A stretch of DNA of 64,000 nt from an uncultured Anaerolineaceae bacterium (GCA_964451095.1 CAYVGI010000003.1:19112-83111); one strand, 5' to 3'; positions 28,917 through 34,573 are shown, numbered from the stretch's first letter. Translations and numbers: made by a program. Notes: a model not told the origin generated them from the sequence alone.

Positions 28917-29696
28917 ATGAAAGACTCAAACATTGCCCAACTGGAAGCCCGCCTGGAAAACCTGGTCGAAGGCGCGTTTGCCCACTTCTTCGGGAAGAAA
29001 ATCCGCGCCCAGGATGTTGCCCTGCAACTGGCACGGGGCATGGAATCGGGGCTGCGGGTTAGTAACGACCGAGACCCACGTTCCATCGCGCCAGATAGTT
29101 ACCGCATCCGCGTTAGCGCGGACACCGTCGCTCACCTGCAAAAACGCCAGCCGAACCTGACTGCGATCCTCAGCCAGCACATGGTTGAACTCGCTGCCAG
29201 TTCGGGCTATCGCCTGGATGCCGCCCCCGTCATAGAACTTATCTCCGACGAAGCGCTGAAGTCCGGCGACATTCGCGTGACCGCCCATCACATCCAAGCA
29301 AGCGACAATTCTACCAATATCATCAACCGAGTTGCCATCCCGGCGAAGAACGAGCACCCCAATAACCCGCAGTTGATTGTCGGCACGCGAACCATCGCGC
29401 TCGATGAGCCGCTGCTCAATGTGGGGCGCAGCCTGGATAATCACGTCATCCTGGAAGACCCCCAGGTTTCGCGCCATCACGCGCAAATCCGCCTGCGGTT
29501 TGGGCGCTACACCCTGTTCGACGGGCAAAGCCGCAGCGGCACCTTTGTGAACGACATCATGGTGCGAGAGCACACCCTGCACGCGGGCGACATCATCCGC
29601 ATGGGCAACACCCAACTGCTGTACGTTGAGGACGACGAACTGGAGCAAACCGACGGAAACATGCCACCCACCAACCCGAATGACGAGGGCGCATGA
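28917..29696 (+). CDS. fhaA: FhaA-like protein (DUF3662-type N-domain plus C-terminal FHA domain)
   Basis: Track ORF 28866..29696. Its first 17 codons lie inside the terminator hairpin, so I trimmed it to ATG 28917. N-domain IAQLEARLENLVEGAFAHFFGKKIRAQDVALQLARGME...YRIRVSADTVAHL. FHA domain LNVGRSLDNHVILEDPQVSRHHAQIRLRFGRYTLFDGQSRSGTFVND. Confidence 0.8.
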   Translation: MKDSNIAQLEARLENLVEGAFAHFFGKKIRAQDVALQLARGMESGLRVSNDRDPRSIAPDSYRIRVSADTVAHLQKRQPNLTAILSQHMVELAASSGYRLDAAPVIELISDEALKSGDIRVTAHHIQASDNSTNIINRVAIPAKNEHPNNPQLIVGTRTIALDEPLLNVGRSLDNHVILEDPQVSRHHAQIRLRFGRYTLFDGQSRSGTFVNDIMVREHTLHAGDIIRMGNTQLLYVEDDELEQTDGNMPPTNPNDEGA

Positions 29697-30151
29697 CCCT
29701 TGCGATTGTTCTACTCCTCCTACGGGTACTTTCCGCCGTTGTGCTGCTGGCAATCGTCGGCGTACTATTCGTTATCATGTGGCGAGACTACCGCAGCGCC
29801 ACCATAGAAATCGAAGAGGCACGCCGCGTCCACGGCAAACTCATTGGGCTGCGCGAAATAGACGACAGTTATGTGCCTACTGGCGAGGTGTTCCCGTTGA
29901 TGTCTGCAACGAGTATCGGACGTGCACCTGTGAACACCATCCGGCTAGACGACCAGACTGCCAGCAGTGAGCACTGTTCCGTGGTGCTGCGGGATGGCGT
30001 GTGGTGGCTAGAGGATCAGAACAGCCGCAATGGCACTAACCTTAACCAGATGCCCGTCACACAGCCCGTTATCGTCACCAACGGCGACATTATCAATATC
30101 GGCACCAAACATTTTCGCATCGAACTCGAAGGGGCAGAAACATGGACTTAG
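29693..30151 (+). CDS. fhaB: FhaB/FipA-like protein (N-terminal TM helix plus FHA domain)
   Basis: ORF track, 152 aa. ATGA start/stop overlap with fhaA. TM helix LLLLRVLSAVVLLAIVGVLFVIMW. FHA domain IGRAPVNTIRLDDQTASSEHCSVVLRDGVWWLEDQNSRNGTNLN. Confidence 0.8.
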   Translation: MTLAIVLLLLRVLSAVVLLAIVGVLFVIMWRDYRSATIEIEEARRVHGKLIGLREIDDSYVPTGEVFPLMSATSIGRAPVNTIRLDDQTASSEHCSVVLRDGVWWLEDQNSRNGTNLNQMPVTQPVIVTNGDIINIGTKHFRIELEGAETWT

Positions 30152-30933
30152 GTTTGGCAGGCGCAAAGGTGCTCGTCACCGCAGCGAGCCAGGGACTGGG
30201 TGCGGCAACAGCACGCCGCTTTAGCCAGGAAGGGGCGCACGTTGTCGTCAACAGCCGCACCGCAGGCAAGCTGGCACAAACAGCGGAAGCCATCAGCACG
30301 GAGAGTGGAAATCCGGTTTATGCACTCGCCGCAGATGTGACCGACAACGACGCCACCGTGCAAATGGTGCACCAAGCGGCAGAAAAGCTGGACGGGCTAG
30401 ACGTGATCGTCACCAATGCGGGCGGTCCTCCAGCAGGCGTGTTCGATGACTTTAGCCAGGACGCCTGGGAAGACGCTGTTCAGCTAAACCTGCTGAGTGC
30501 GGTTAACCTCATCCGGGCGGCACTGCCCTACCTGCGCGAGTCTGACAGGGCGGCAATCCTCACCATTACGTCTATCGCCGCCAAAGAACCGCAGGGCAAC
30601 CTCACCCTGTCCAATGCGGTGCGCCCCGCCGTGCTAGGACTCACCAAAACACTCTCGCTGGAACTGGCGACGGAGGGCATCCGCGTGAACAGCATTCTAC
30701 CCGGCATTACGGACACCGAACGTATCGTCAAGCTGGTGAGTGCCCGTGCGGAGAAGAACAACACATCCGAGCAAGAGGAGCGCGAACGCATGGGCGGGGC
30801 AATTCCGCTGGGGCGCATCGGCAAACCGGAAGAGTTCGCCAATGTCGCGGTGTTCTTATGCTCACCAGCGGCAGGTTTCATCACAGGCGCGATGGTGCCT
30901 GTTGACGGCGGTGCCGGGCACACAATCATATAG
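30142..30933 (+). CDS. atypical short-chain dehydrogenase/reductase-fold protein (BKR-like, non-canonical catalytic residues)
   Basis: ORF track, 263 aa. Overlaps fhaB by 10 nt. Rossmann motif VLVTAASQGLG and NAGG. In place of YxxxK the aligned residues read S157-N-A-V-R161 (30610-30624). Confidence 0.85.
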   Translation: MDLGLAGAKVLVTAASQGLGAATARRFSQEGAHVVVNSRTAGKLAQTAEAISTESGNPVYALAADVTDNDATVQMVHQAAEKLDGLDVIVTNAGGPPAGVFDDFSQDAWEDAVQLNLLSAVNLIRAALPYLRESDRAAILTITSIAAKEPQGNLTLSNAVRPAVLGLTKTLSLELATEGIRVNSILPGITDTERIVKLVSARAEKNNTSEQEERERMGGAIPLGRIGKPEEFANVAVFLCSPAAGFITGAMVPVDGGAGHTII

Positions 30934-33152: not shown

Positions 33153-33154
33153 CC

Positions 33155-34573
33155 ATGAACTTTACCCGCGAAATTAACCGCTTGATGGCAGCAATGATGG
33201 CAGCGTTTACCGTTATGCTGCTCGTCGCCGCCTACTACGGCGTCGCTGGCAGCATCACCCTACTCCCCCGCGAGGACAACCCCCGCCTGGTCGAAGCGGA
33301 GCAGTCTATTTTGCGCGGTGGCATCTACGACCGTAACGGTGAACCGCTGGCGCAAACCACCGCTGGCGAGGGCGGCTTCGCAGAGCGCAGCTACATCAGC
33401 GAGGCAGCATACAGTGCGCTTGGTTACTACAGCTATCGCTACGGCACCAGCAATGCAGAAACAGCATTTGACGCGCAACTGAGCGGCGCAAACCTGCCCC
33501 CCACGCTTGACCAGCTTGTGTTGGGACGCCCACCACGCGGTGAGGACATCCAGCTTACGCTGGACATCGCCGTGCAAAGGCGTGTCTTCCGCGCCATGGA
33601 AGGCTACGACGGTGCCGCCGTCGTTATGACGGTGCCCAATGGGGAGCTGCTTGCGCTGGTGAGCCTGCCAACCTACGACCCCAACACCCTGGACGATGAC
33701 TGGGACACACTCATTGAAGCGCCCGGCAACCCGTTCTTCAACCGAGTGCTGCAAGGCAGCTATCAACCGGGCACGATGATGCAGCTACCCGTACTGTTAG
33801 ATGCGATCACACGCGGGCAATCGCTGAATGCCCAGTTCCCAAGCGGCGCATCCCCCGTGCAGCTTGACGACCTGACTTTAAGCTGTGTCGTCAGTCCCCC
33901 ACAAATTCAGCTCACACTGGCAGAAGCTTATGTATACGGTTGCCCAGCGCCGTTTGCCCAGCTTGTGTCCGTTCTCCACGCAGAGCGCTTCCAGGCGGAG
34001 CTTGACGTGCTGCGCCTGCAAAACCCACCCACCCTTGCGGGCTTCCTGCCAGAGCAGGACAGCGGCGGAGACGGAACCGACACACCCAACGTCCTCCTGA
34101 CCACAGCAAACATGCGAGAGAACGTGCTCGGGCAGGGCATGTTTAATCTATCCCCGATGGCGGTTAACGCCATGGTCGCGGCGGTCGCAAACGGCGGCAA
34201 CACCCCACAACCTCGCATCCTTGCCGGGACGAGACCCCAGGGCGCAACCGAGTGGATACCCAACCAACAGCGATTCGCCACCATCCCCTACACCACACCC
34301 CAGGCAGCAACGGCAACCCGCGACCTGATGAGCCAGTCTGTGCGGGTGGGCAACGCTAGCCAGATCACATGGAGCGGGCAGTCTGTGCGCGGGCAGGGGG
34401 CAATTGCCTACAGCGGGGAAAGCACATTAGTGTGGTTTACGGGCTTTGCGCGTTACACCAGTGGGGAGGCAGCGGTCGTCACGGTGATACTGGAGGATAC
34501 GGCGGACGTTGCAGCAGCAGCAACCGTCGCCAGGGAAGCGCTAAACGCTGCCAACATCGCCCTCACCCGCTGA
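33155..34573 (+). CDS. pbpA: class B penicillin-binding-protein homologue (PbpA/PBP2-like) lacking all three catalytic motifs
   Basis: Track ORF 32711..34573, trimmed to ATG 33155, 2 nt after the rodA stop. TM anchor, then PBP-dimer and transpeptidase fold signatures (AVVMTVPNGELLALVSLPTYDPN, NLSPMAVNAMVAAVANGG, LVWFTGFA). SxxK is replaced by TMMQ, SxN by GCP, and KTG by QGA. Confidence 0.85.
   Translation: MNFTREINRLMAAMMAAFTVMLLVAAYYGVAGSITLLPREDNPRLVEAEQSILRGGIYDRNGEPLAQTTAGEGGFAERSYISEAAYSALGYYSYRYGTSNAETAFDAQLSGANLPPTLDQLVLGRPPRGEDIQLTLDIAVQRRVFRAMEGYDGAAVVMTVPNGELLALVSLPTYDPNTLDDDWDTLIEAPGNPFFNRVLQGSYQPGTMMQLPVLLDAITRGQSLNAQFPSGASPVQLDDLTLSCVVSPPQIQLTLAEAYVYGCPAPFAQLVSVLHAERFQAELDVLRLQNPPTLAGFLPEQDSGGDGTDTPNVLLTTANMRENVLGQGMFNLSPMAVNAMVAAVANGGNTPQPRILAGTRPQGATEWIPNQQRFATIPYTTPQAATATRDLMSQSVRVGNASQITWSGQSVRGQGAIAYSGESTLVWFTGFARYTSGEAAVVTVILEDTADVAAAATVAREALNAANIALTR

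Follow-up and report, generated by a model that had tools for sequence, protein, structure and literature searches.

In Mycobacterium tuberculosis the genes fhaA-fhaB-pstP-rodA-pbpA-pknA-pknB (Rv0020c-Rv0014c) have been described as an operon, and FhaA has a role in polar wall synthesis (PMC11898655). Catalytically inactive penicillin-binding proteins of class B (bPBPs) can still support the function of SEDS proteins, as with catalytic mutants of Bacillus subtilis PBP2b and Clostridioides difficile SpoVD (summarized in PMC12516126); SEDS::bPBP fusions are found in Actinomycetes, for example Rhodococcus jostii (PMC12516126), and rlmH flanks mrdA in operons of the rsfS-rlmH-mrdA-mrdB type (PMC12516126). 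Here a related cluster is described from the genome of an uncultured Anaerolineaceae bacterium (5.03 Mb, 252 contigs, 93.9% complete). The cluster occupies 28917-34573 of a stretch of 64 000 nucleotides, contig C3:19112-83111, referred to throughout as the window, and consists of six genes in the order fhaA-fhaB-SDR-mtnP-SEDS-PBP. These encode two FHA-domain proteins, an atypical protein of the short-chain dehydrogenase/reductase (SDR) fold, an S-methyl-5'-thioadenosine (MTA) phosphorylase, a SEDS protein and a bPBP homologue of the PbpA type. The cluster is probably the Anaerolineae version of the fhaA-fhaB-rodA-pbpA morphogenesis operon, in which the SEDS protein would work with a catalytically dead, non-catalytic PBP partner and mtnP and the SDR gene would be passengers.

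The actinobacterial cluster is the closest relative of the locus, and its description in a first-pass annotation of the window as an actinobacterial-style FhaA-FhaB...SEDS-PbpA unit is supported by the gene order, by the combination of FhaA_N and FHA domains and by the PbpA-type partner. The two clusters have in common the order of the shared genes, an FhaA with FhaA_N and FHA domains, a small membrane-anchored FhaB with an FHA domain, and a SEDS gene followed directly by a gene for a PbpA-type bPBP with a PBP_dimer_2 head, the one here being matched best, among solved structures, by M. tuberculosis PbpA (3UN7, E 5e-22, residues 42-456). They differ in that no pstP gene for a PP2C phosphatase lies here between fhaB and the SEDS gene, where mtnP and, in some genomes including this one, an SDR gene are found, and in that pknA and pknB are absent 3' of the PBP gene, where there is a convergent PHP gene instead. 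In addition, the FhaA linker is short (259 aa for the whole protein), MurJ lacks the pseudokinase domain for FhaA binding, the SEDS-PBP pair is a third pair beside separate RodA-PBP2 and FtsW-FtsI pairs, and the PBP, unlike the active PbpA, is without catalytic motifs.

Results

Loss of the transpeptidase motifs from the PBP

Domains were assigned by matches of Pfam and NCBIfam profiles to predicted open reading frames (ORFs), and the six gene calls and the gene order of the first-pass annotation all agreed with the ORFs and domains obtained (Table 1). The PBP has the architecture of a bPBP, with a hydrophobic N-terminal helix, a head domain and a transpeptidase fold. However, the three catalytic motifs are lost, the window protein reading TMMQ at the SxxK position, GCP at SxN and QGA at KTG. 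In this protein and 25 order-level orthologues taken together, SxxK is changed to (G/T/S)xx(Q/H), SxN to GCP and KTG to (H/Q/Y)xx.

To set the locus among its relatives, 120 loci were compared, comprising 40 from the same genus, family and order and 80 further named loci (Aggregatilineales/Anaerolineae). The latter were the best 80 of 398 relatives found by searching species-representative genomes with the PBP alignment, and were metagenome-assembled genomes labelled Chloroflexota, Anaerolineae, Aggregatilineales or Phototrophicaceae with four exceptions, labelled Pleurocapsa (two), Oceanobacillus (one) and Bacteroidetes (one). An intact SxxK was present in none of the 80 further loci, and across all the Anaerolineae orthologues examined the SxxK position reads (G/T/S)xx(Q/H/E) and all three motifs are lost. 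The genome's own FtsI and PBP2 retain SxxK, SxN/SxD and K(S/T)G in the same alignment, and eight other transpeptidase-domain matches are present in the genome. Outside the Anaerolineae, every one of the 20 orthologues sampled retains PGS(T/V)FK, S(C/D)N and GKTGTAE. When placed on a tree of the SEDS proteins (a quick IQ-TREE reconstruction rooted with the genome's own RodA and FtsW), the dead-PBP state is a single change, with an SH-aLRT value of 89 for the clade. These data agree with the first-pass annotation, which had called the protein a pseudo-PBP; judged from its motifs, it is a predicted pseudo-transpeptidase, and this is class-wide in the Anaerolineae orthologues examined. The B. subtilis PBP2b and C. 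difficile SpoVD cases are alike in that a non-catalytic bPBP supports the SEDS protein while another PBP cross-links, which is proposed here from sequence; they are laboratory mutants, whereas the present case is a natural loss of three motifs that is fixed across a class.

In six of seven loci from other Anaerolineae orders the genes fhaA-fhaB-mtnP are followed by one ORF of 807-912 aa, a SEDS-PBP fusion in which the SEDS part is N-terminal and the dead PBP part, its motifs lost, comes after it (L151-L153 and L155-L157). Five of the six fusions have a deletion of profile positions about 215-330 (about 115 positions, mid-transpeptidase, including the GCP region), and the pedestal-like N-terminal PBP part is retained in the fused forms at 186-207 bits. 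The deletion implies that the transpeptidase lobe is dispensable in those sister orders. The fusions of actinomycetes similarly place an N-terminal SEDS part and a bPBP module in one polypeptide, but their transpeptidase domain is canonical, whereas that of the Anaerolineae fusions is dead and partly deleted; in the window, SEDS and PBP are separate genes.

Conservation of the PBP is uneven, with a mean pairwise identity of 45-53% over residues 36-215 against 30-35% over residues 216-472, and 25 of its 33 invariant columns lie within the first 205 residues. The invariant columns and the gene fusion together point to purifying selection, which argues against the SEDS-PBP pair being a decaying remnant. 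Alternatively, the dead PBP may have gone beyond the part of a scaffold or activator and acquired a new activity or ligand-binding role; a sensor of wall fragments and a Cys-based enzyme are two examples. It is indeed in the former SxxK region (residues 151-215, 53% mean identity) that the protein is most conserved, and the SxN position is now an invariant Cys-Pro with a second invariant Cys 19 residues upstream (C244 and C263); these cysteines may be joined in a disulfide or make up a new site within the cleft of the former active site. A new activity is, however, hard to square with the five fusions that have dispensed with the mid-transpeptidase region, GCP included, while the pedestal-like part is well conserved, and we consider it improbable.

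A third SEDS protein

Three SEDS genes were found in the genome, two of them on contig C6 with PBP2 and FtsI and the third in the window. In an alignment to FtsW structures (chains of the 8P1U type) the window protein keeps the catalytic-Asp motif HSDFVFA, PSELLK and (L)PFVSYGGSS. Its scores are under the equivalog cut-offs of both FtsW and RodA, which sets it in a separate subfamily. In the SEDS tree the FHA-linked proteins form one clade apart from the genome's RodA and FtsW (SH-aLRT 99). The protein is thus predicted to be a third glycan polymerase, distinct from RodA and FtsW of this genome.

FHA proteins, kinases and phosphatases

The residues of the phospho-threonine pocket (Gly-Arg, Ser-x-x-His and Asn) are invariant in 41 of 41 FhaA and 41 of 41 FhaB orthologues, and both FHA assignments made in the first-pass annotation hold (scores in Table 1). 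The FhaA-like and FhaB-like proteins are accordingly described here as predicted phospho-threonine readers. The best NCBIfam match of the FhaB-like protein is NF049868 (FhaB_Rv0019c) with 67.1 bits, under the cut-off of 125; the protein has the same architecture as FhaB/FipA and lies below the equivalog level.

A genome-wide search for kinases and phosphatases, which had been called for beforehand, found both to be abundant in trans, with 38 Hanks kinases (Pkinase matches), at least three PP2C phosphatases (PP2C_2 matches) and 32 FHA matches. None of the 38 Pkinase and none of the three PP2C_2 matches lies on contig C3, which includes the whole window, and the earlier statement that the 64 kb contain no kinase, and so no writer or eraser in cis, was borne out. 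A search of the genome (93.9% complete) for PASTA domains gave none, and since none is present among the 38 Hanks kinases and nine transpeptidase-domain matches, wall-sensing kinases of the PknB/PrkC type seem to be missing.

On the minus strand of contig C1 (66992-72062) a module was observed which encodes a Hanks kinase bearing beta-propeller repeats, a PP2C phosphatase, a J-domain/vWA protein (identified by eye) and a zinc-ribbon FHA protein, and which is followed by a response regulator. This PP2C-kinase pair was considered as a partner of the operon and could not be assigned as such, its context being unrelated and without wall genes. The same was true of a PP2C-kinase pair on contig C60, the kinase of which is, by eye, a 1554-aa protein of the NTPase/WD40 type.

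Conservation of the arrangement

The order ppiC-like/fhaA-fhaB-(SDR)-mtnP-SEDS-PBP/PHP(convergent)-(LPG-synthase-like)-C39/TPR-murJ was nearly universal in the 40 and 80 related loci, and the gene order of the cluster was shared by most of the 120, far above chance. The arrangement was also tested for being unique to this strain, and its wide conservation in both sets of loci contradicts this. In almost all of these loci mtnP lies between fhaB (or the SDR gene) and the SEDS gene. The SDR gene was present in 17 of the 40 and 27 of the 80 loci, its presence varying even within a genus, and was found in none of the sampled loci outside this order; it is an optional addition confined to this order. 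No kinase or PP2C gene was found inside the cluster in the 40 and 80 loci, the only kinase-like matches being on the opposite strand, 3' of the PBP gene, in two of the 80 (L096 and L111).

In a few genomes the cluster was split between fhaB (or the SDR gene) and mtnP, by inversion in L049/L107 and by insertion in L047 and L065, and mtnP-SEDS-PBP was found without fhaAB nearby in L083, L111 and L121. These splits suggest that the cluster is composed of two modules, fhaA-fhaB and mtnP-SEDS-PBP.

Across the phylum, 151 Chloroflexota genomes were sampled, of which 94 have FhaA_N, each of them once. Forty of the 94 fhaA loci were annotated with profiles of the orthologous proteins and of the kinases and PP2Cs encoded in the present genome. 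In other Chloroflexota classes the order is fhaA-fhaB-SEDS-PBP, the PBP motifs are intact, and mtnP is present in four family groups; some Chloroflexota families have fhaA-fhaB-SEDS alone or fhaA-fhaB alone. Even with the threshold relaxed to E<1 and a home-made hidden Markov model of three sequences, no PP2C gene was found in the cluster at any of these 40 loci across the phylum, and a kinase was found at one of the 40, on the opposite strand; the form free of kinase and phosphatase is therefore the norm in Chloroflexota. The locus had been described as lacking the phosphatase and kinases, which is true here but is not peculiar to this genome. It had also been described as having an SDR and MTA phosphorylase in the PP2C slot; the two genes do fill the interval between fhaB and the SEDS gene, but there is no sign in the 40 Chloroflexota loci that a PP2C gene was ever there.

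The large ORFs that lie 3' of the SEDS gene in some families were considered as kinase or PP2C genes and rejected, as they encode amino-acid permeases and other unrelated products. In one Chloroflexota family group a gene for a DAO-type FAD oxidoreductase lies between the SEDS gene and an active PBP gene (L159:4132-5346 and L186:6398-7627), a further case of a metabolic gene carried in the cluster, and one genome from outside the Anaerolineae has two tandem copies of fhaA 5' of fhaB-mtnP-SEDS-PBP (L165:2883-4808).

The SDR gene and mtnP

The first-pass annotation had noted two metabolic genes in the cluster. Both are present, but their histories differ, mtnP being old and the SDR gene optional and order-specific. 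In 17 of 17 orthologues the SDR reads SxxxR where classical members have YxxxK, and it is without the classical catalytic Ser-Tyr-Lys triad; its closest solved structure, 5VPS, has the same SxxxR motif, which places it, by sequence, in a recurrent atypical SDR group. MtnP is predicted to be a fully typical MTA phosphorylase (MTAP), above the equivalog cut-off (Table 1); against the seven solved chains of the MTAP family that match it best it scores 199-242 bits. No second MTAP is encoded in the genome, which has one other, distant PNP-family match (27% identity). The presence of mtnP requires at least four changes on the SEDS tree, and from the distribution of the two characters its association with the cluster appears older than the loss of the PBP motifs. 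Recent transfer of the SDR gene and mtnP was considered and rejected, as the GC content is uniform over 28-36 kb and the identities of the orthologues track those of their neighbours.

It is conceivable, though unlikely, that mtnP, and perhaps the SDR gene, takes part in the working of the wall machine, for example by coupling clearance of MTA, an S-adenosylmethionine (SAM)/polyamine by-product, or a nucleoside signal to glycan polymerization, or by regulating the SEDS protein in a moonlighting role. Its position directly 5' of the SEDS gene, seen in nearly every Anaerolineae locus and also in several lineages of Chloroflexota outside that class, would be explained in this way, as would the tight or overlapping junctions and the fact that mtnP usually stays with SEDS-PBP when the cluster splits (L047, L049, L065, L083, L111 and L121). 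Yet MtnP is typical in every respect of its family and, as the sole copy in the genome, must do the housekeeping job, and many Chloroflexota clusters are without mtnP. In five Chloroflexota genomes with such a cluster, MTAP was encoded far from the cluster in three and was not detected above the cut-off in two, which indicates that the link between mtnP and SEDS is not obligatory. There is also a precedent for housekeeping genes related to SAM in SEDS-bPBP operons, in rlmH beside mrdA (PMC12516126). The rsfS-rlmH-mrdA-mrdB operons resemble the present cluster in having a growth-related housekeeping gene of SAM metabolism beside a SEDS-bPBP pair; they differ in that the gene here encodes an MTAP and not an rRNA methyltransferase, in gene order, and in the FHA proteins encoded upstream here. 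The best interpretation of mtnP, in our view, is that of a housekeeping gene transcribed together with the cluster.

The transcription unit

A perfect TATAAT was found 6-9 nt, mostly 7 nt, ahead of an in-frame fhaA start in 36 of the 40 order-level orthologous loci (L031-L070), and among these 40 loci the region 5' of fhaA often reads GGCTATAAT. The conserved position of this box looks like that of a conserved leaderless mRNA start. All five junctions between the six genes, when read from the sequence, gave exactly the overlaps and gaps of the first-pass annotation (Table 1), and start and stop codons overlap at three of them. Among relatives, most SEDS-to-PBP spacings are -4 or -1 nt, and most mtnP-to-SEDS spacings fall between -23 and +36 nt. 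The conserved TATAAT and the overlapping junctions support a single leaderless operon, and fhaA through to the PBP gene would then be co-transcribed as one unit. A strong terminator precedes fhaA (Table 1), and no convincing terminator was found on the plus strand within 28917-34573, the two weak matches both being inside coding sequence. The regional total of terminator-like sites (18 against 13 +/- 3.5 expected) was not above chance, nor was the number of promoter-like sites (six found against 3.6 +/- 2.1 expected).

These observations also bear on the possibility that the genes are mere neighbours, in separate transcription units or with SEDS and PBP as a decaying remnant, and have no joint function with the FHA proteins. 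A weak promoter-like match does precede mtnP (30902-30929, 9/12), and a few genomes, as described above, have the fhaA-fhaB module separated from the mtnP-SEDS-PBP module or show an inversion. In the two genomes in which the mtnP-SEDS-PBP module is detached, mtnP has a TATAAT of its own (n=2, suggestive only); upstream of the attached mtnP of relatives there is a Shine-Dalgarno-like sequence, and a conserved -10 box is absent. Against a chance association are the start/stop overlaps at three junctions, the conservation of gene order class-wide and into other classes, the retention of the SEDS catalytic residues, and the number of promoter-like sites being no greater than expected. Of the explanations considered here, this one is given the lowest probability, and it is very unlikely.

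Table 1. Positions of the cluster, its junctions and its flanking features, counted from the first nucleotide of the window
Feature	Position	Strand	Description
Intrinsic terminator	28855-28880	+	11-bp stem, T6 tail; closes the upstream ppiC/SurA-like unit; top-ranked terminator-like site
TATAAT -10 box	28904-28909	+	7 nt 5' of the fhaA ATG; probable promoter
fhaA-like gene	28917-29696	+	FhaA_N (PF12401) 78.9 bits, short linker, FHA (PF00498) 65.8 bits; 259 aa
fhaA/fhaB junction	29693-29696		ATGA overlap
fhaB/fipA-like gene	29693-30151	+	N-terminal hydrophobic membrane helix and FHA (PF00498) 66.6 bits; 152 aa
fhaB/SDR junction	30142-30151		10-nt overlap
Gene for atypical SDR-fold protein	30142-30933	+	adh_short_C2 185.6 bits
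SDR/mtnP junction	30934-30955		22-nt gap
mtnP, S-methyl-5'-thioadenosine phosphorylase	30956-31840	+	TIGR01694 MTAP 286.3 bits, cut-off 274.85
mtnP/SEDS junction	31827-31840		14-nt overlap
SEDS gene	31827-33152	+	FTSW_RODA_SPOVE (PF01098) 260.6 bits; 441 aa
SEDS/PBP junction	33153-33154		2-nt gap
Gene for PbpA-type bPBP homologue	33155-34573	+	PBP_dimer_2 (PF21922) 32.5 bits and Transpeptidase (PF00905) 66.9 bits, weak
Gene for PHP-family phosphoesterase	34541-35266	-	Convergent; 33-nt overlap with the PBP gene; marks the 3' end of the unit
C39-like/TPR gene and murJ	36533-39757	+	Conserved downstream neighbours, outside the operon
murJ	38057-39757	+	MurJ domain alone, residues 58-508; 566 aa

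Neighbouring genes

The PHP gene is a conserved neighbour of the cluster in most of the 80 further loci. The C39-like/TPR gene stops 3 nt ahead of murJ, and this pair was also observed 3' of the cluster in most of the 80. MurJ itself was matched by the MurJ domain only, in agreement with the first-pass annotation, which had placed a MurJ without the pseudokinase extension at 38057. Two further MurJ-like genes were found in the genome, on contigs C24 and C2. A fusion of MurJ to a pseudokinase elsewhere in the genome was looked for and rejected, as no kinase match falls at any of the three MurJ-like loci.

Discussion

The reading that we consider probable, an Anaerolineae fhaA-fhaB-rodA-pbpA operon with a dead PBP partner, would operate as follows. 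A leaderless mRNA would run from the -10 box 7 nt 5' of the fhaA ATG through the PBP gene. The FhaA-like protein would be a cytosolic and the FhaB-like protein a membrane-anchored reader of phospho-threonine. The SEDS protein would polymerize lipid II, and the dead PBP would retain only the non-catalytic job of a bPBP, that of binding, activating or positioning its SEDS partner, with cross-links supplied by the other transpeptidases of the cell. FhaA and FhaB would tie this wall machine to Ser/Thr phosphorylation, which the kinases encoded in trans would add and the PP2C phosphatases encoded in trans would remove, and mtnP and the SDR gene would be co-expressed passengers outside the mechanism of the machine. 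What the sequences show is the gene content, the states of the motifs, the conservation, the fusion in sister orders and the kinases encoded in trans; that the genes are co-transcribed, that the SEDS protein is active, that the PBP serves as its activator and which phospho-targets are involved are what we infer from the data above.

Some observations weigh against this reading. The former active-site stretch of the PBP, NRxLQGxYQPG, is strongly conserved, and C244 and C263 are invariant in the 26 PBP orthologues, one of them taking the place of the SxN Ser in GCP; the conserved former active site and the two cysteines may be signs of a new function and not of mere scaffolding. A search for candidate phospho-sites gave no conserved Thr, either in the N-terminal cytoplasmic part of the SEDS protein or in the short cytoplasmic stub of the PBP. 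Finally, mtnP has remained beside the SEDS gene for a very long span of evolution, through most of the splits of the cluster, and pure hitch-hiking accounts only loosely for this persistence. A fuller version, in which an FHA-controlled SEDS protein works class-wide with a permanently non-catalytic PBP, separate in Aggregatilineales and fused in other orders, other enzymes cross-link the glycan strands, and MtnP is in addition coupled as a real regulatory or metabolic input from SAM/polyamine turnover, is nevertheless unlikely, and we would hold it no more readily than the proposal that mtnP is a part of the wall machine.

Beyond the content of the first-pass annotation, the present analysis adds a phylum-level polarity, in which the predicted state of the PBP is intact outside the Anaerolineae, its motifs appear to have been lost once, the association with mtnP appears to be older and the SDR gene is order-specific. 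It also adds a set of conserved promoter positions that points to a leaderless start, and a survey of the whole genome for kinases, phosphatases, FHA domains, SEDS genes and MTAP. A search of the literature returned nothing specific on a Chloroflexota fhaA cluster, on a natural (class-wide) pseudo-bPBP or on a link between MTAP and SEDS.

The bPBP partner of a SEDS protein is thought to have two jobs, the cross-linking of glycan strands and the switching on of the polymerase. Here the cross-linking job would have been removed across a bacterial class, while the protein was kept and, in sister orders, fused to the polymerase. A class-wide dead PBP would be natural evidence that the non-catalytic job alone merits retention. 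The FhaA and FhaB readers have, to our knowledge, been studied so far in Mycobacteriales. That a second phylum links them to a SEDS-PBP pair, with neither a kinase nor a phosphatase dedicated to the cluster, suggests that the link between reader and machine is separable from the genes for writer and eraser, and the Chloroflexota cluster may be a simpler setting for studies of what the two readers do. The association with mtnP, in turn, would offer a clean test case for whether very old membership of an operon means function or only co-expression.

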